Shown one piece after another: positions 2,526-48,457 of a stretch of 64,000 nucleotides of DNA. Below the pieces are notes generated by a model. The model searched no databases, was not told the origin of the DNA, and saw only the letters and a list, made by a program, of their open reading frames with translations. Each line of letters opens with the position of its first letter. Within the stretch, counting starts at the first letter, position 1. Source of the stretch: Escherichia coli (lineage in GTDB: Bacteria > Pseudomonadota > Gammaproteobacteria > Enterobacterales > Enterobacteriaceae); assembly GCF_030013205.1 (NCBI RefSeq), contig NZ_CP122648.1; one strand, given 5' to 3'. The position numbers were made by a program, and so were the translations under genes.

Positions 2526-3995
2526 TTAATGGCTTTCGGGCGTCGCAATCATTCGTTTCAGCCACGGCACCATCAGCAGCATCACCACCGCAACGCCCAG
2601 CGTAACCAGGCCAATCTTACCAAACACGTTGGTATAGACGGGCAACGTCTCAAGTGGATCGGTAATGTTGTCTGGTACTGCGGTAAATGTTGCCACATAG
2701 CCGCCCAGCAAGAACGCGGCAGCCTGTGTCAGGAACCACATCCCGAGAATAAAGCCCATCAAATGCTGCGGCACCAGGGCAGCAATCATCGCCAGGCCAA
2801 GGGCGCTAATAAACAGTTCACCTAAGCTCTGGAATAAGTACACCAGCACGATAAACCATGGCGATGTCAGTCCTTGTGCATCAGCAAACCACATTCCCGC
2901 AGCGGCGGCTGTAAGAAAGCCCAGCGAGCACATAAACATGCCGAGAGTAAATTTCATCGGCATCGAGAGGTCTTTGCCTTTGTTACCCAGATGCGTGTAA
3001 ATGCCTGCCAGTATTGGGCTGGCGAGTACCACCCAGAACGGGTTAAGCGCCTGGAAGCTGACAGGGTTGATGGAAAAGCCGAGAATTTCATGATGCACGT
3101 TGTTGATGGCAAAGAAGTTCAGCGACGTTGGCATCTGGGCGTAGAGAATGTAAAACACCACCGCTTCGAGCATCAGGACAAAGGCGACAAACATTTTATT
3201 GCGCCCGGTTTTATCCAGCTTGAATGCCTGACGAAAGAAAATGATGGTGACGACGATGGAGAGAACAATCAGCACCAGATTGGCGACTTCTACGTTGTGC
3301 ATCAGCCATGCACAGACGAAGATCATCACCACGCTGCCAAGTAACACGTACAACAGTTTGCTGAAGCTCATCGGCCGGAAGTCGGGTTCAGAACCAATGT
3401 CTTTTACCATTCCGCGACAGGCGATGTAAACCAATAGCGCGATAATTAATCCCGCACCGCACAGGTTGTAGGTGACTGAATAGCCGAATCTATCAGCGAT
3501 CACAGGGGCCAGCGATAACGCTATCAACGAGCCGATGTTGATCGACATATAGAACAGGGTAAATGCGCCATCAAGCCGCGGATCTTTCGGCGGATAGCAC
3601 TTCGAAAGCAAGCTGGCTGGGTTAGCTTTAAACAGGCCGTTACCGACAGCGATAGTCCCCAGGGCGATGAAAATCAGGTCAGGCTTAAGTAGCGACAGGC
3701 CGGTCATGAAGTAGCCAATCGCCAGCACAAGTGCTCCGAGGACAATGGTGCGTTTGGTCCCCAGCAGGTGGTCGCCGACATAGCCGCCAATGGAAATGAG
3801 GCCATAGACCAGCGCAGCAAAAGCACCAAAAGTGACAAAAGCCTGTTCTTGCGAGAATCCAAGCTGCTTAACGAAGAAAACCGCCAGTACGCCCTGCACG
3901 CCGTAGTAGCCGAATCGCTCCCATAACTCGACAAAAAAGATCATGAAAAATGGGCGAGGTTGCTGCAGCATCCCCATGGGTGTTGTTGTATTCAT
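2526..3995 (-). CDS. dtpB: dipeptide/tripeptide:H+ permease (POT family)
   Basis: 489-aa ORF, strongly hydrophobic multi-TM protein, full-length match to DtpB/YhiP as recalled. Confidence 0.92.
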
Positions 3996-4745: not shown

Positions 4746-5135
4746 AGTGTTACTCCTTCCATAAAGTTGTCGATGACTGGCCAGCTAGCGTTTCTTGTGC
4801 CGTTACGTCACCCGCGTCCTGCGAACTACGTGCGCGGGGCTAACCCAGCCGTAAAGATTCAGTGTTAAGACCATCCTTACCTTATAGCGACCCGGATGAT
4901 CCGTCAATCCGCCTTACTTACTCGTTAGATAAACAAATTTTCGACATGAATATATTGATAGTGGTTAACCTTCTGGAAAAAAAACAACCTGATCTCCTAC
5001 ACTATCTATAGAGCCGCTCGGATGTTGGTCACCACAAAAGCGGTTTCTCCAGGACCTGGTGTTAACTGATTGGCAGCGTATCGGGAGCGGTAGCCCCGGG
5101 GTGGAACTCCGCGGGCAGGTCGCCGGGGAGGAGGT

Positions 5136-5541: not shown

Positions 5542-7041
5542 TTACAGGAACTGCAAGGAGAGCCAGTAAAGCCCGCCGGAAAGCAGTACCGCAGCCGGAA
5601 GGGTAAACACCCAGGCCATCAGAATACTGGTCACGGTTTTACGCTGTAAGCCGCCGCCATCTACCACCATCGTCCCCGCGACAGAAGAGGAGAGTACGTG
5701 GGTAGTGGAAACCGGCATCCCGGTATAACTCGCCAGGCCGATAGACACTGCCGCAGTCATCTGGGCAGACATCCCCTGAGCGTAGGTCATGCCTTTCTTA
5801 CCGATTTTCTCACCGATAGTCGTTGCCACACGACGCCAGCCAATCATCGTACCGATACCTAACGCCAGCGCGACCGCCATGATGATCCACACCGGTGCAT
5901 ACTCGATGGTGCTAAGCATGTCAGACTTCAGTTTCTTCAACAGGCGCTGATCGTCAGCACTCACGCCAGGCATCTTCACCACTTTGTCGATAGTGTCAGA
6001 AACGCACAGCATAATGCGGCGCATCTGGCTACGTTGATCAAGCGACAGCTTATCGTAGCTTTCCACATCGGTAGTCAACATGCCTTTCAGGCGGTTGAGC
6101 GCGTTAATGGTATTCGACGGATGGCAATGGAACTCCGCAGGTTGCGTTGCGCCAGCTTCCGGAGCCGGTACTAACTGATCAGCACCGGTAGCCTGTTTCA
6201 GCAGCGCAGGGTGCTGCTCAAAGTAAGCTTCCACGTTGTTGATGGCATCACGGGTACGGGTGATTTCGTAGCCAGTGGCATTCATGTTCACCACGAAGCC
6301 TGCTGGTGCGACGCCAATCAATACCAACATAACCAGACCAATGCCTTTCTGACCATCGTTCGCGCCGTGCGAAAACGCCACGCCGATAGCGGAAAGGATC
6401 AGCGCAATACGCGTCCAGAACGGCGGCTTTTTCTTGCCGTCTTTCTTTTCACGCTCCGCTGGGGTCAGGTGGATACGGGCGCGTTTCTTGGTGCCGCTCC
6501 AGTAGCGACGCAGCAAGAAAATCAGACCGCCAGCAAACACCAGGCCGACAATAGGGGAAACGATCAGAGAACCGAAAATACTTAATACTTTCGGGATATT
6601 GAGTGCATCCACCACTGACGTCCCGGTCATCAACGCATTGGTTAAACCAATCCCGATGATCGCGCCAATCAGCGTATGAGAGCTGGATGCAGGTAAACCA
6701 AAGTACCAGGTACCCAGGTTCCAGATAATCGCCGCCAGCAACATAGAGAACACCATGGCAAGGCCATGAGACGATCCCATATTAAGCAGCAGATCCGTCG
6801 GCAGCATATGCACAATGGCATAGGCAACACTCAGACCACCCAGCAAAACACCCAAAAAGTTGAACACCGCCGCCATAACCACGGCGAGCTGAGAACGCAT
6901 CGCGCGGGTATAGATAACGGTTGCCACGGCGTTGGCTGTGTCATGGAAACCATTGATGGCTTCGTAGAACAGCACAAAAGCCAGTGCAAGCAATAATAAC
7001 AGCCCGGTATGCAAATCCAGGCCAGCAAACAAATGTAGCAT
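5542..7041 (-). CDS. pitA: low-affinity inorganic phosphate:metal transporter
   Basis: 499-aa polytopic membrane ORF, PiT-family GANDGQK motif, full-length match to PitA as recalled. Confidence 0.93.
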
Positions 7042-7272
7042 AGGACGTTACGCCATTTTGAGGACATGAACGCGGCGCATTATCAGTGACTTTCGCGGCG
7101 CGGGCAAAGTGAAATATAGACTTTTTTTGATTTGCCTCCTGTATGGATTTCACTCAAAAAATAATTATCTTATATAATTCAGGTAAATACTTCCTTTTAG
7201 TAATATTGATGCTGGTGCGACCACTGAGGAATCTTTACAATTCACGCCCGTTTTTTCTTAGAGGAGCGCAAC

Positions 7273-8475
7273 GTGGAAAGGTTTGATGCCATTATTATAG
7301 GCGCTGGTGCGGCGGGTATGTTCTGTTCTGCGCTGGCAGGTCAGGCAGGACGCCGGGTTCTGCTGATCGATAATGGTAAAAAACCAGGGCGCAAAATCCT
7401 CATGTCTGGCGGTGGGCGCTGCAACTTTACCAATCTTTATGTCGAACCGGGCGCTTATCTGAGCCAGAATCCGCATTTTTGTAAGTCTGCACTCGCGCGT
7501 TTTACCCAGTGGGATTTCATTGATCTGGTCAATAAACACGGCATCGCCTGGCACGAGAAAACGTTAGGGCAACTCTTCTGCGATGACTCCGCTCAGCAGA
7601 TTGTCGACATGCTGGTGGATGAGTGCGAGAAGGGCAATGTGACCTTCAGATTGCGTAGCGAAGTGCTGAGCGTGGAGAAGGATGATACAGGCTTCACGCT
7701 TGAACTGAACGGCATGACTGTCGGTTGCGAAAAGCTGGTCATCGCGACCGGTGGGCTGTCAATGCCAGGGCTGGGCGCGTCGCCGTTTGGTTATAAGATT
7801 GCCGAACAATTTGGCCTCAACGTGCTGCCGACCCGCGCGGGCCTGGTGCCATTCACTCTGCATAAACCGTTGCTCGAAGAGTTACAGGTGCTGGCGGGCG
7901 TGGCGGTGCCTTCCGTGATTACCGCTGAAAACGGCACCGTTTTCCGTGAGAACTTACTCTTCACCCACCGCGGCTTATCTGGACCGGCGGTGTTGCAAAT
8001 TTCCAGCTACTGGCAACCGGGTGAATTTGTCAGTATCAATCTGCTACCGGATGTGGACCTCGAAACCTTCCTGAATGAGCAGCGTAATGCACATCCGAAT
8101 CAGAGCCTGAAAAACACACTGGCGGTTCATCTACCGAAGCGGTTGGTTGAACGTTTACAACAACTCGGGCAAATCCCGGATGTCTCGCTAAAACAGCTCA
8201 ACGTACGTGACCAACAGGCACTGATTAGCACATTGACCGACTGGCGCGTACAACCCAACGGCACTGAAGGCTATCGCACTGCCGAAGTGACGCTCGGCGG
8301 CGTGGACACCAACGAACTCTCTTCACGGACGATGGAAGCGCGCAAAGTGCCTGGGCTGTACTTCATCGGCGAAGTGATGGACGTCACCGGTTGGCTGGGG
8401 GGCTATAACTTCCAGTGGGCGTGGTCGAGTGCGTGGGCTTGTGCGCAGGATTTGGTCGAAGCGAAGTCGTCCTGA
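7273..8475 (+). CDS. yhiN: FAD-dependent oxidoreductase, HI0933/BaiN-like family
   Basis: 400-aa ORF with N-terminal dinucleotide-binding GxGxxG (IIGAGAAG); matches YhiN as recalled. Confidence 0.88.
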   Translation: MERFDAIIIGAGAAGMFCSALAGQAGRRVLLIDNGKKPGRKILMSGGGRCNFTNLYVEPGAYLSQNPHFCKSALARFTQWDFIDLVNKHGIAWHEKTLGQLFCDDSAQQIVDMLVDECEKGNVTFRLRSEVLSVEKDDTGFTLELNGMTVGCEKLVIATGGLSMPGLGASPFGYKIAEQFGLNVLPTRAGLVPFTLHKPLLEELQVLAGVAVPSVITAENGTVFRENLLFTHRGLSGPAVLQISSYWQPGEFVSINLLPDVDLETFLNEQRNAHPNQSLKNTLAVHLPKRLVERLQQLGQIPDVSLKQLNVRDQQALISTLTDWRVQPNGTEGYRTAEVTLGGVDTNELSSRTMEARKVPGLYFIGEVMDVTGWLGGYNFQWAWSSAWACAQDLVEAKSS

Positions 8476-10140: not shown

Positions 10141-11813
10141 TTGCTTTGTATCATCGTAAAAATGTCTTTCAGACATGTGTCATTTATTTTGTCACTAACA
10201 AGTCAAAAATATCACGGGTTATTTATGAAAGTATTTCACAATATATTTAAGCACTTCTCTTCAAACCATCAAGATAAGCATTCAGATAAAGTTAACAGTC
10301 ATCAACACCATGGCAATGTTGATAAAAAACATCGTTCAAAGATAGTTGAAATTGATAAGCTGGATAAACATTCGCAAATAGATAACGATTTTGGCCTGCA
10401 TATCATCTATTTCCTGCAACATGGCTGCTGGAACGTAACTGAACATAGTCCTCAGATAGAAAAACTGTGGTTTTACAATAGTGAGCCATCTATAGATATT
10501 AAAGAATATAATGGTTTCGCCGATAATACTACTGACACGTTTATCTTTACAATTATACCAGACAATAACCATGTGATAAAATTATCGTCTCCCATTACCG
10601 TTACGATTGAGCGTAAGGACGGTTATTATTTTATTAATTTCTCCGGGGATAAATCAGACATAATTTATAAAGTTGATGGGTTTTCTATCATACCTGAAAA
10701 TTTTTTTACTCTTCTTAGCGGTAATTTTAAAGCTGACTGGCGTTGGGCTGTCTCTAAAGAGACGTTTACTAAGGAAAAGTTTGATAGCTATGTTGAATCT
10801 GTTTTTTCAAAAATAGACTTTTATAAACAGTGTGGTGTGATTAACCCAAAAAATCCCAACACGGCTTATTTTGGCGATACAGATGGAAGAGTGGGCGCTG
10901 TACTTTATGCATTGCTCGTTTCAGGGCATATAGGCATCAGGGGAGAGGGGGGAGTTTATTATGTCAATTATTAAAACACGAAGACATGGCGTCATTCGCA
11001 TATGAAAATAAAAAATTGAAAAAACTCTTCACTTTATTAGATACGAGAGACATGATCTTGAATGAGTTGCATCAACATGTTTTTTTAAAAGGCGATGCGA
11101 TTACCCCTTGTATCTTCCTTGGGGATCATACAGGCGATAGATTTAGTACTATTTTTGGTGATAAATATATCCTTACTTTGCTAAATTCTATGCGAAATAT
11201 GGAGGGTAATAAAGATAGTCGTATAAATAAAAATGTTGTCGTTCTGGCTGGAAATCATGAAATCAATTTTAATGGTAACTATAGTGCACGACTAGCAAAT
11301 CATAAACTCTCTTCCGGTGATACATATGACTTAATTAAAACGCTCGATGTTTGTAATTATGACTCAGAAACGAAAGTTTTAACCAGTCATCACGGAATAA
11401 TAAGAAATGAAGAAAATGAATGTTATTGTCTAGGTGCTTTGCAGGTTCCATTTAATCAGATGAAAGACCCAATTGATCCTGAGGAATTAGCAAATATATT
11501 TAATAAAAAACATAAACAACACATGGATGATCGTCTTATCCATCTAATTAGAAGCAATGCTATAGCATCCACACCTGTATATGACAATTATTTTAATAAC
11601 ACTACTGCTTTCAGACCAAAACCTGAAGATATCTTCAAATGTGGACAGACGCTCAAAAAAAGTAAACAGAAATATGGCCATTATGGATTAGGGGTAGATC
11701 AGCATCAAAAAATTGATAATTATACCATGGGGCTAAATTCCTGGAAGATAGCACCTAACGAACGTGGTGATAAAAAAGGTGTCCCAGGGCTTAGTTGTTT
11801 TCAATCTCATTAA
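10141..11813 (+). pseudogene. yhiL: yhiL, DUF4049-family paralog of yhiJ, split by a frameshift into two ORFs (10141..10974 and 10986..11813)
   Basis: The two adjacent ORFs are in different frames and together align to the C-terminal two thirds of the 540-aa yhiJ product (AYFGDTDGRVGAVLYAL; CIFLGDHTGDRFS...VVLAGNHEINFNGNY); AT-rich; likely native start is ATG 10225. Confidence 0.75.
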
Positions 11814-12074
11814 AACTCCATGAATACGGTGGTATATCTTTTTAATCCTGCCAGTATTTCATAGTTTTTCTTAATCGATTGTAGAGGCATGTTCTGATGA
11901 CGCCTCTACAATCTTTAGGGACTTTCTCTACTATGAGATAAGAAATTTCATATTATGCTTTAAGGCTGAATGATTTGTGCAAAATATAATTATTTTTCCA
12001 TCGAACATGAGGTGTTTGTCATAAGATTAAATGATAACTATGTATTCCTCGCGGTGAATTGTATGAGGTAAAAG

Positions 12075-22219: not shown

Positions 22220-23380
22220 CTAAATCAGTAAGTTGGCAGCATCACCTGTTATAGCCATTAGATCCTTATTTGAATTAAGGTTCGTTGGTGCTGTTAGCAC
22301 TGTATCCATTTTTAACTTACCATTAGTTCCTCGCCCCCACCACGTCCATAGCGTGTCAGGTCCTATTACATTTGTATGTAACTCTTTAGCTAATTGGCTA
22401 GCAAATGAATTTTGTCCTTTACCTGTATTACAAGAAAATAACCAAACTGTCATCCCATCTTTATAATTCCCATCAAATTTAATTAGATATGCTAGATCTT
22501 TAGCTGTCATGATACTGCGCGTTGCGGATTCAATAGATGTGGGGGTACCATGCCCCCCGATTGTGAAAACGCCTGGGATATTAATCTCATCAGCTACAGA
22601 ATGGATAAGATCACTTTCGGGGTATAAATTTATATCAACCAAACCTTGCGGATCTACATTTATGACCGGATTCAACGGATACTGATAAAAATTCCATCCC
22701 CCCTTCAGCCCAATCGGATCCTGAGTGATATACCGCCCCTGCAGCGGGTCATAATAGCGGTGGCGGTTGTAATACAGGCCGGACTCCTCATCATACTGCT
22801 GACCCGGCAGGCGGATGAGCTGCTGCAGCTGGTGCGGGTTCTCTTCATTCAGCAGGTTGCCCCACTCATCGTATTCTGCGTACCACGCTGTTGCCCCTTC
22901 CGTGCTGACAAGCGCCAGCGGCAGGCCGCGATGGTCGCAGTGGTACAGGTGGATTTTTCGCGCCGGCGTGTACACCGGGTCCATCTGGTTTTGTATCTGC
23001 TCCACCGTCAGGCCGCACGATGCCAGCCAGCGGCGGCTTTCCTCACTCACCCGGTCAGCCAGGATTTCACTTTCCAGCCGGTCGAGCATCTGCACCAGCA
23101 CCGGCGGGAACACCATACTGCCACCGTCTTCACCGCCGGACTGCTGAAGGGCATCCGCCAGGCTGCGGCGCTGCGTTTTCGCCAGCTCACCGGTGGCGGT
23201 TTCGACCCTGATGAGTGGCGTGAAGCTCCCCGGCTGATAAACCGTCTGGATGCGGGTTCTGTCGTTCTGTATCGTGGTCAGCCGGTCGCCGTCCCAGCCG
23301 TACCAGGTCACTTCCGGTTTCCGTGACAGCGACATCCAGCCCGTCAGGTCCCGTTCACGCCGCCACACCCGTTTTGCCAC
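22220..23380 (-). pseudogene. rhsB: rhsB 3' portion: conserved core end (DPxGL motif) plus C-terminal toxin domain interrupted by IS1
   Basis: 386-aa frame with [13 protein letters not shown]...NVDPQGL then a variable C-terminal domain; the last 8 codons (GDAANLLI) are IS1-derived. Confidence 0.85.
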
Positions 23381-26364
23381 CCTGCGGCCCAGCGGGTTTC
23401 AACCAGCGGCTCTGCATATTGTGTCCGCGTGTAGTGCACCAGCCGGTGCCGGCTGTCGTAATGGTACCGGTGAGTCCGCTCATCATCCGTGCGGATAACC
23501 CCTTCCGGGATGAGGTCGGTTTTCTCCGTCAGCCTGCCGTGACGGTCATACCGGTAAAGATAGTGCGCGTCACGGGCGATACGGTTATCCGGCCACATGC
23601 TGAGGGTGCTGTCCGGGTGCAGCTCCGGGTCGGGCAGGCGGTTGCCCGCCGGGTCCGTGGCATACGGGATGCGGATATCCAGATTCGCTGCGGTGGTGTG
23701 GACGCCGGTCAGCCTGCCGGTGTCGCTGTAGCTGTAACTCCGGGTCTGGCGCGGGCTGCTGATGCGGATGAGTTCGCCGTTGTCGTTCCAGGTGTAATCG
23801 CGGTCATACTGCAGGCTGTTCAGGTGCTGGCTCTGTAACTGCCCGGCAGGGGTGTAAGCGGTGGTGAGTTCATAACGGCCGAAGCTGCGCAGCGTTTCCC
23901 GGTGCAGGCGGTCGCGGGTGTACTCCACCAGCGGTGTGTCGCCGAGTTTCATGCCTGACAGCCAGCCGCTGCCGTAGGTCAGCCATTCCACGGCGGGCAG
24001 GCTGTCCGGTATACAGCGGTTCGCCAGTCCCTGCGTGTTGTAAGCGTGTCTGGTTTCATGCTGCCAGAGCAGTGCTTCCGTCTGCGGATGATGCACCGTC
24101 TGGCGCTCACCGGTCAGGCGGCCTTTCTCATCATACCCGTAATGCACCGTCACCCGGTGGCCTTCGCTGAGATGGCTGATGCCTGTCAGCCAGCCGCGTT
24201 CGTCATACTGCCACTGCTCTGCAGGTTCACCCTTCACGGTGCGGTGAGTGAGGCGGTCTGCTTCGTCATAGTGCCAGTGGGTGACCAGCCCCTCATCCTC
24301 GCTGCGGATAAGTTTACCGGTCAGGTCGTGGTGATAACGCTGTGTGCGGCCGTCAAAGCCGGTTTCCTGTATCAGCCGGTCGAGTACATCGTAACGGAAG
24401 GTGGTGTGGCTGCCGTTTTCACTGGTCAGGCGGATGACCCGTCCGGCAGCATCGTATTCCATACTGCGCGTCAGACCGCCCTGTGTGGTACGGATGGCCT
24501 TTCCCCACGCATCGTACTGTGTCCCGTTTCTGCTGCCGTCCGGGGCAATGACGGCGGTCAGGTCACCGGCGGCGTTGTATTCATACCGCGTTTCATGGCC
24601 CTGCGTGTCTTTCACCGCAATTAACTGTCCACGGCTGTCGTATGCGCGGTACTGACTCAGCCCTTCCTCGCGGTGCACCGCCGTCACCTGACCAAAACGG
24701 TCATGGTCATAACGGGTTACATAACCGGAACAGTCAGTGACGGTCAGCAACTGACCGTAACGGCTCCATGTCATGGTTTTCCGGCTGCCGGTGGCATCTT
24801 CCGTTGCGCAGGGTAAGTCACTGTGTGGATTATCATAACGGTAGCGGGTGATATCGCCGTTGTGTGCGGTTTCCTGAATCAGACGGCCGGATTCATCATA
24901 TTTGCGGCGCAACTCCAGCCCGTCAGTCCCGGTGGCTGACGTTAACTGGTTGTGGTGGTTATAGTAAAATGCCGATGCCCTGCCATCCGGTGTGGTGATG
25001 CGCGTGATGAGTCCCGTCACCACATCCGGGCTGTACTCAGTCGTCCGGCCTGCGGCATCCGTCTGTGCCTTAAGCCCGCCCACCGCGTCAAACTGACTCT
25101 GCGTGACGCTGCCGTCCGCGTGTTCCTTTTTCACCACCCGCTTCAGCCCGCCTTCGCCCTGCGTGTGCAGCACTTCACGGCGGTCCAGACTGTCGGTGAT
25201 GGTGATGCGGTCTTTCTCATACTGATACGTGTAGCTTAAGCCTGCCGGGTTTAGCTGTTCTGTCACCCGCCCGTCGCTGTCGTAACGGTAACGGATTTCC
25301 GGCCGGCCCGTGTGACGGTGCGCCACCATCCGGCCCCGGTATTTATCATCGTAAGTAAAGCTGCGCACCTGTGTATTGCTGCGGTCATACACCGCCGCCA
25401 GTTCGCCGCGTGGCGTCCAGCCATAGCGCACCAGCGGCGCGGCAGGTAAATTCTCCGGGTATTCCGGGTCGTGCGTCAGCCACACGGCAGACAGACGGAT
25501 GCCGTTGTCCCGGCCATATTCGGTGTAACCCGGCAGGGTATCAGGAAAAGCGGACGGTTCCGTCCCGCCGGAAGAGGCCTGCTGCCGGGCTTCTTCTGCC
25601 CGCTGCGCCTGCGTGGTCAGTACCAGCCGGAAGTGACGCCCGGCACCATCCGTCACGCCGGTGATTTCGCCGCTGAATTCGCCGCCAGCCTCACGGTGAA
25701 ACGTCTGTGTGCGCCCGAAGCGGTCCACCAGCCCGGTCAGTACCCGGTACGGCGGCAGCGGCGCGGGCAGCACCTCATCCGCTTCCGGCACCCGCTCACA
25801 CCAGCCGAGCAGCCACCACGGCCCCTGCGGACTGTTTGTCGCCAGATAACGATGCGGACTTAAGCGGAGTTCTTCCGGCAGCGCCTGCCAGAGTGCGGCC
25901 AGCCGGTGACCTTCATCCAGTTTCAGGACACCGCCACGCACCAGCCAGAGTGATTCGCTGCGGCTGTAACCGTCCTCACCGGGAAACAGGTGCTCAAAAT
26001 ACAGGCTTCTGCCGCCGTTATCACTGAGTATCAGTGTGTTATCGCGCAGCTGTAAGCGGATATCCGCAGGCATTTTCCAGCCGGGGCCTAGGCTTCCCAC
26101 CGGCGCGGGCGTTTTTGTCCGGTAACTGCTGTAGGTGCGGGAGAGGATGAACGGCAGCGGGCCGGGCAGTGCAAGGTCTGTCTCGCCGGGAAGGACCTTC
26201 GCACCGAGCAGCGGATTGACCGGATGGCCGGACGTCACCCCGCCGGGGCACACCGAACAGGCCACGCCGGTGGGGGCACCAATACGTACCCCGGCTGAAC
26301 CCTGGACAATGCTACCGCCATACTGCGTCATGTCGCCCTGACGCGCCGCCGGTTTTCCGCTCAT
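23344..26364 (-). pseudogene. rhsB: rhsB core (YD-repeat protein), separated from its 3' part by a frameshift
   Basis: 1006-aa [20 protein letters not shown]... with many YD repeats; ends 37 nt inside the next ORF in another frame. Confidence 0.88.
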
Positions 26365-47065: not shown

Positions 47066-47822
<757 letters not shown>

Positions 47823-47926
47823 ATCAGCATACTTGTCCTTAGCCTTCTGCAGTGACAGCTGGTAGTACAGCGTGCTTCTGGCCAGCCCTGCAGCCTTTAA
47901 CAGGTCAGACTGGCAGTGTCCGCACC

Positions 47927-48457
47927 TCAGGCTCCGGATGACTTTCGTTTTTTCTCCAGCTCCTGGCGCTTTTTTTCCAGGAGATGCTCCTGCATGGCTT
48001 TCAGATATGCATTTTCTGCGCGAAGATAACGCAGCTCATTCTTCATCTCTTCCGGCGTCATGTTTGCCTCGTTTTCATGGGTATCATCAGAACGGGTCAT
48101 GCTTTTCTCCTTCCTGCGCCTGATAAAGGCCTCATTACCAGATTTGCGGTAGCCTTTTATCCAGTTTTTAACCGTGTTGTGGCTGGGAATGTTAAACCGG
48201 GCAGCTACCCGGGGTAGAGACTCAGAATGCCCGAGAGCATAAAGAACCACGCAAAGTTTATCTTCAGGAGAATAGCTACGCTTGTGTCTGCAATCCAGTG
48301 CCCGAGGACCGTGAAGAAGAAAAAGATTAATCCAGTGTGAGAGGCTGGTGTGAGAAAGTTGAAAGAGTTTTGCCGTAGAAATGATGCCTGCATGACCGGC
48401 CAGGTAATGATTTACAGCGGCAAGTTTTACTTCAAATGAATGTTTCATAAACTGCAC
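47927..48457 (-). CDS. insJ: IS150 orfA (InsJ), helix-turn-helix protein
   Basis: 176-aa ORF (alternative start 48448) matching InsJ as recalled. Confidence 0.9.
   Translation of the reverse strand: MQFMKHSFEVKLAAVNHYLAGHAGIISTAKLFQLSHTSLSHWINLFLLHGPRALDCRHKRSYSPEDKLCVVLYALGHSESLPRVAARFNIPSHNTVKNWIKGYRKSGNEAFIRRRKEKSMTRSDDTHENEANMTPEEMKNELRYLRAENAYLKAMQEHLLEKKRQELEKKRKSSGA
47969..47977 (-). promoter_or_regulatory. programmed -1 ribosomal frameshift site A-AAA-AAG of IS150
   Basis: Heptamer in the orfA frame (ctg gaa aaa aag cgc); shifting -1 here joins orfA to the orfB frame, which reads directly into MKQLIASIF... Confidence 0.7.

Follow-up and report, generated by a model that had tools for sequence, protein, structure and literature searches.

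The rhsB locus and its gene layout

In the window, that is, the whole 64,000-nt stretch of Escherichia coli DNA analyzed here, an rhs gene lies on the minus strand, where it is flanked by nikR and yhhJ and broken into two ORFs. ORF1 (23344..26364, minus strand) starts with ATG and encodes 1006 aa, that is, a typical E. coli Rhs N-terminus followed by YD repeats. ORF2 (22220..23380, minus strand) starts with GTG, encodes 386 aa in a frame different from that of ORF1, and shares with it an overlap of 37 nt (23344..23380). Pfam searches assigned DUF6531 and ten RHS repeats to ORF1 and PF03527, "RHS," to ORF2. The latter contains DPIGL and, after 17 residues, DPQGL, and then continues as a tail devoid of repeats. 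A preliminary description of this DNA had reported both ORFs and had assigned to the second one the rest of the core with its DPxGL motif, and this was confirmed by translation and by Pfam. The order nikABCDE-nikR / rhs / yhhJ-rbbA was found in strains K_EC180, CFSAN018748, and K-12 alike. This is the position of rhsB and, by synteny, the locus is rhsB.

Two intact genes at the same position were available for comparison. The rhsB gene of the swine strain CFSAN018748 (WP_107235553.1, 1409 aa), a close relative, has the same locus, the same tip, the same yibG-like gene, and the same degenerate array as the window, with 98.7% identity over the gene. Unlike the window copy, it bears neither the deletion nor the IS1 described below, and no better stand-in for the functional ancestral allele was available. 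K-12 rhsB (b3482, YP_026224.1) lies, like the window copy, between nikR and yhhJ, and its core is 95.7% identical over 3,714 nt. Homology with K-12 ends at nt 3714, which is exactly the core/tip (DPxGL) boundary. In contrast to the window copy with its deletion and IS1, K-12 rhsB is intact (1411 aa), and it carries another toxin tip and another immunity gene (yhhH).

The native coding part of rhsB in the window comprises codons 1-989 (23398..26364, minus strand), with the N-terminal PAAR-containing region, DUF6531, and the YD/RHS repeats. It is followed by the out-of-frame tail of ORF1 (23344..23397, minus strand), made of 17 missense codons and a TGA stop (23344..23346). Translation and alignment placed the rest of the Rhs core, out of frame with ORF1, at 22640..23395 (minus strand). 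It includes the RHS-associated core, or aspartyl-protease plug (22640..22873, minus strand), which contains DPIGL (22706..22720) and DPQGL (22640..22654); TIGR03696 matches aa 1170-1247 of the intact allele. The architecture of an Rhs toxin gene could thus be recognized, with two DPxGL motifs 17 residues apart (22640..22720), then a 162-aa tip, and then the yibG-like gene. The intact allele belongs to the NCBIfam family NF041261 RHS_core, against which it scored 2619 bits for a cut-off of 2000. In the window, however, no single frame runs through shell, protease plug, and tip, and for this reason rhsB here is, judging from its reading frames, a pseudogene of the Rhs family rather than a functional Rhs toxin gene. 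As a matter of fact, PGAP/RefSeq labels the K_EC180 copy "RHS element core protein; frameshifted," and the order given after rhsB in that genome is IS1, a partial "hypothetical protein," yibG (Sel1 repeat), an orphan Rhs fragment, an Imm57 pseudogene, and a truncated ISAs1.

The first 131 of the 162 codons of the C-terminal toxin tip occupy 22247..22639 (minus strand). The tip is of the yibJ type and carries conserved His30 and Cys70. Searches with the 162-aa tip returned no Pfam or NCBIfam match at E<=1 or 0.1, and no hit in a PDB sequence search. The AlphaFold2 model, built from a 4-sequence alignment, reached a pLDDT of 61, and Foldseek found nothing significant for this pLDDT 61 model in the PDB (best E-value 0.027, TM about 0.3). 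Homologs were limited to E. coli and to a few Salmonella proteins, at 44-50% identity. In this family, His30 and Cys70 are invariant and lie in a beta-alpha-beta-alpha core, and our hunch is that such a His/Cys pair might belong to a thiol hydrolase or peptidase. Orphan copies of the tip carry the label "DUF8616" in some RefSeq records. The tip of the window and its Sel1-repeat partner (PGAP name yibG) are of the type of the orphan yibJ-yibG module at the K-12 rhsA locus; going by annotation names, K-12 yibJ is presumably of the same tip type. The difference is that the tip is an orphan fragment in K-12 and is fused to a full-length rhsB core in the window. In strain CUPS04, the same tip/yibG/Imm57 array is again an orphan, downstream of rhsA-yibA.

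The yibG-like Sel1-repeat gene (20896..21363, minus strand; PGAP name yibG) is intact and encodes 155 aa with a weak Sel1/TPR match. From its place directly after the toxin tip, it is the presumed cognate immunity gene. A literature search on yibG/yibJ found no functional study. In strain EC556, PGAP annotates yibG (6944-7410 in the extracted locus, equivalent to 20896..21363 of the window, where the gene is intact) as frameshifted: the EC556 immunity gene may also be decaying, or there may be a homopolymer sequencing error at this place.

Further downstream, the PGAP annotation of the near-identical K_EC180 record delineates a degenerate array (19177..20862, minus strand). It is composed, on the same strand, of an orphan Rhs tip fragment with an internal stop (20644..20862), an Imm57 immunity pseudogene with a frameshift and a stop (19750..20272), and a truncated ISAs1/H-repeat transposase (19177..19575). 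Since the same decay is seen in CFSAN018748, the decay of the array is older than the two rhsB lesions. According to the K_EC180 annotation, the other window sequence up to 49360 consists of ordinary chromosomal backbone that extends from prlC to panM and further. Two adjacent DUF4049 paralogs are annotated there between yhiM and yhiI (about 10225..13700), and a copy of IS1397 (IS3 family) between livJ and panM (about 47100..48450).

The 16-nt deletion and the IS1 insertion

A BLAST alignment of the window with the intact syntenic allele of CFSAN018748 contained exactly one 16-nt gap. The preliminary description had suspected a deletion of roughly 16 nt and had proposed an alignment with K-12 rhsB as a check; this alignment returned the same 16-nt gap, so the size is exactly 16 nt in both comparisons. 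The missing bases are AGCCGCTATCTTTACG, which code for S-R-Y-L-Y and provide the first base of D. The codons earlier thought to be lost were those for YLYDP: Y-L-Y is indeed gone, D has lost its first base only, and the P codon is retained. The junction lies at 23397..23398 on the minus strand, in the context GTTGAA/ACCCGCTGG (the slash marks the junction), and intact alleles carry GAAAGCCGCTATCTTTACGACCC at the equivalent site. The intact reading is GTT GAA AGC CGC TAT CTT TAC GAC CCG CTG GGC (V E S R Y L Y D P L G), and that of the window is GTT GAA ACC CGC TGG GCC. This position is 17 nt outside 23344..23380, the interval in which the lesion had first been placed and which turned out to be the ORF overlap only. 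The lesion had also been described as lying just before the core end. It is upstream of that end, but the wording was loose, since 258 codons (774 nt) separate the deletion from DPQGL, and the deletion is ~79% along the core. It comes after codon 989 of 1409, and 17 wrong codons and then TGA follow.

The flanks of the junction offer a clue to its origin. They contain an imperfect 7-nt direct repeat, AGCCGCT/ACCCGCT, with 6 of 7 positions alike, and exact microhomology at the junction amounts to 1 nt (A) only. We considered a clean microhomology-mediated deletion and rejected it, as only 1 nt is shared at the junction and the flanking repeat is imperfect. Slipped mispairing at AGCCGCT/ACCCGCT would be a plausible way to lose the 16 nt; because of the 1-nt identity and of the imperfect repeat, this mechanism is one that we infer.

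The second lesion is an IS1 element of 768 bp (21479..22246, minus strand), with canonical ends GGTGATGCTGCCAACTTACTGAT... and ...GGAGTCATTACC. Size (~768 bp), both inverted repeats, and an 8-bp target duplication (8-9 bp being usual) all identify it as IS1, and PGAP annotates it in K_EC180 as "IS1 family transposase; programmed frameshift." The duplicated target site reads CTATAACA on the minus strand and is found at 22247..22254 (copy 1) and at 21471..21478 (copy 2). The element sits after codon 131 of the 162-codon tip, and its left inverted repeat adds 8 foreign codons (GDAANLLI) and a stop, which ends ORF2 at 22220. On the other side of IS1, the displaced 3' end of rhsB, that is, the last 31 tip codons (TKDLGNWITYGPSGHPISNMQGTPEKPSDIR) and the stop, is found at 21375..21470 (minus strand), where PGAP annotates a partial "hypothetical protein." A scan for promoters and terminators around IS1 and yibG found nothing beyond the range of shuffled sequence.

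We then repaired the gene in silico by restoring the 16 nt and by removing IS1 together with one copy of the duplication. This gave an uninterrupted ORF of 1409 codons, whose protein shows 18 residue differences from CFSAN018748 RhsB. The clean ORF indicated that the window copy carries exactly two lesions, and it upheld the earlier view that rhsB is, with a real IS1, doubly inactivated. As both lesions were read from direct comparison with intact alleles, chance is not at issue.

IS1 has also been found close to this tip in other strains. The rhsA locus of CUPS04 has an independent IS1 10 bp downstream of the window's site (~22237), in the same tip sequence; it lies at position 3070 of the extracted locus, with the left flank ...GCTATAACAACAAAAGACC, and the tip is there an orphan module after rhsA-yibA. 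Strains H71-H73, H77, and H92-H96 also have IS1 within a few hundred bp of the tip module. The AT-rich stretch of the tip appears to be a small target hotspot for IS1.

Carriers of the two lesions and copying of the deletion into rhsC

A 1-kb query across the deletion site matched 3,900 of the 5,426 complete E. coli genomes, a consequence of the multi-copy nature of Rhs cores, which were matched at 6-7 places per genome. Matches at 100% were restricted to 17 genomes, all from swine, and the next-best hits spanned 1017 nt for a query of 1001 nt. With a 120-nt probe for the deletion junction, exactly 17 of the 5,426 complete genomes were retrieved, with 3 matching places per record, of which rhsB and rhsC were compared here. 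The carriers are K_EC180 (Korea), EC556, EC571, and EC581 (Japan), the O139:H1 strains W13-16 and P15-25, and a series of ETEC isolates. A 120-nt probe for the IS1/rhs junction matched these 17 genomes too, each time ungapped and in a single piece, and none of the 17 carriers sampled had just one of the deletion and IS1. An 18th carrier is GCA_900450405.1, an independent assembly in which the same two ORFs and IS1 lie on a 5.04-Mb contig, and the exact 1006-aa product has been deposited from it as a CDS (STL82383.1). Incidentally, two single-base differences were noticed between the window and K_EC180. One is in a five-G run of the toxin tip (22334..22338), which is one base shorter in K_EC180 and identical in the window and CFSAN018748; K_EC180 may have a third lesion here, unless the missing base is a sequencing error in that genome. 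The other is in an A-run near 19080.

In EC556, the deletion was present in both rhsB and rhsC, and the best match to the junction was at the ybfA-linked rhsC. The junction lies at position 6051 of the extracted rhsC locus and at position 4900 of the extracted rhsB locus, both equivalent to the step from 23397 to 23398 in the window. From the deletion site of the query to the rhsC-specific tip, the deleted rhsC version measures 1550 nt, and it was found only in EC556, EC571, and EC581. The intact version, of 1566 nt, was present in CFSAN018748 and in the remaining 14 carriers, and rhsC of K_EC180 is an intact CDS.

A six-way alignment of the cores gave more information on EC556. At nine diagnostic sites (columns 3108-3472), its rhsC has the rhsB allele, together with the deletion, and it is back to rhsC alleles from column 3494; the rhsB-type SNPs that accompany the deletion in rhsC extend over at least 505 nt. 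Conversely, EC556 rhsB has an rhsC-type patch (22 sites) at its 5' end (columns 60-666), as well as an additional in-frame deletion of 12 nt, as seen in columns 60-691 of the core alignment. A third allele type makes up a further patch of EC556 rhsC, in columns 906-1462. On the basis of these allele patterns, there are several conversion events among the cores, and a non-reciprocal gene conversion from rhsB to rhsC is well supported as the event that spread the frameshift into a previously intact toxin gene. Exchange between rhs repeats belongs to their history as "rearrangement hot spots," and a study in Salmonella describes recombination between main and orphan rhs that activates an orphan toxin (PMC3967940). 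The present case resembles the Salmonella one in that homologous exchange takes place between rhs cores of one genome, here as non-reciprocal rhsB/rhsC patches; unlike what is described there, the exchange here passes an inactivating frameshift to a second full-length gene.

The transfer to rhsC proves independently that the deletion is present in real DNA, and the recurrence across laboratories and platforms of a 16-nt loss lying outside homopolymers leads to the same reading, namely, that the deletion is a real mutation and not an assembly error. An assembly or sequencing artefact in a gene continuous in the real genome, which the preliminary description had named as its possible refutation, has practically no chance left: multi-copy Rhs cores are able to mislead assemblers, and single-base homopolymer differences do exist between the window and K_EC180, but the deletion recurs unchanged in GCA_900450405.1 and in 17 complete genomes, which come from several laboratories and countries, and its presence in a second paralog of three isolates, within linked rhsB-type SNPs, fits recombination of real DNA.

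Consequences for the toxin and origin of its loss

In Photorhabdus Rhs1, a C-terminal aspartyl-protease plug closes the shell, and the catalytic Asp belongs to the second DPxGL (PMC8636562). The DPxGL motifs of Rhs1 are spaced by 17 residues, and blocking cleavage lowers toxicity (PMC8636562). More generally, Rhs sequences diverge right after DPxGL into the toxin tip, and the immunity gene comes next (PMC3150448). We conclude that rhsB of this swine-associated E. coli clone was almost certainly made a pseudogene by two independent and real mutations, that is, the 16-nt deletion and IS1. The deletion after codon 989 shifts the frame, so that translation would end after 17 wrong codons. The predicted 1006-aa product would keep the N-terminal region and most YD repeats, and would be devoid of the last ~258 shell residues, of the aspartyl-protease plug, of both DPxGL motifs, and of the whole toxin tip. 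With the shell end, plug, motifs, and toxin all missing, such a product is expected to be unable to encapsulate, cleave, and deliver. As for IS1, it transposed into the toxin tip, with duplication of an 8-bp target, and detached the last 31 codons. Judging from published Rhs structures and mutants, each lesion should by itself abolish toxin delivery. With rhsB broken and the presumed immunity gene yibG intact, the weapon would be lost and the shield kept.

Might the split be tolerated, with a working toxin made either by ribosomal frameshifting at the junction or by translation of ORF2 alone? The 37-nt overlap of the ORFs and the GTG at 23380 that opens ORF2 would be compatible with it, yet we consider it hardly credible. 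Recovery of the frame would need a -1 shift at GTT GAA ACC, and no X XXY YYZ slippery heptamer of the kind used in programmed frameshifting was found at the junction (GTT GAA ACC CGC). No Shine-Dalgarno sequence stands at a proper distance from the GTG at 23380, as the upstream ...GGGCCGCAGG abuts the codon. Furthermore, the C-terminal fragment alone would be missing the secretion region at the N-terminus as well as most of the shell, and IS1 anyway removed the last 31 tip codons, including residues that are invariant in the family.

Another possibility starts from the event seen in rhsC. Since the Rhs cores are nearly identical to one another, the frameshift can be passed to other paralogs by gene conversion, and an intact core could in principle be copied back in the same way. 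The 16-nt deletion might then act as a transferable "off" allele, by which Rhs toxins are silenced, and possibly re-armed, in concert. Such an adaptive and reversible Rhs switch is speculation, and we regard it as very unlikely. No repaired core was found among the 17 genomes that carry the IS1 marker.

A further explanation accepts both lesions as real and holds that the loss was selected, as an adaptive disarmament that saves costs or avoids self- or kin-intoxication, with immunity kept as a "cheater" strategy. Two hits in one gene next to an intact yibG-like gene would fit with this, and so would the fact that the same frameshift also knocked out rhsC in the Japanese sub-lineage. However, a second hit is also expected under neutral decay, once the first one has killed the gene. 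In addition, all carriers form one clone and hence represent a single evolutionary event, which counts against selected loss, and the annotated frameshift in EC556 yibG goes against a sustained selection for immunity. Selected loss is therefore unlikely.

Our preferred reading is that rhsB underwent ordinary lineage-specific gene decay. The public annotation in RefSeq already flags the gene as frameshifted. K-12 rhsE is likewise an annotated Rhs pseudogene. Truncations, frameshifts, and IS insertions are common in polymorphic-toxin genes, with the immunity genes being retained (PMC3150448). Compared with other Rhs pseudogenes and IS-disrupted toxin modules, the window shows no difference in kind, and what it has of its own is a lineage-specific pair of lesions.

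For annotation, this means that the clone should count as having no functional RhsB toxin, and that ORF1 and ORF2 are not two genes, although they are so counted in one public deposit (STL82383.1). Together, the deletion and the IS1 junction make a convenient marker by which the lineage of this swine ETEC/STEC clone can be recognized. The sole mildly notable result is the spread to rhsC by gene conversion in one sub-lineage. In this case, the concerted evolution of Rhs cores has worked on an allele with loss of function, and this bears on the speed at which the competition-toxin arsenal of a strain can erode.
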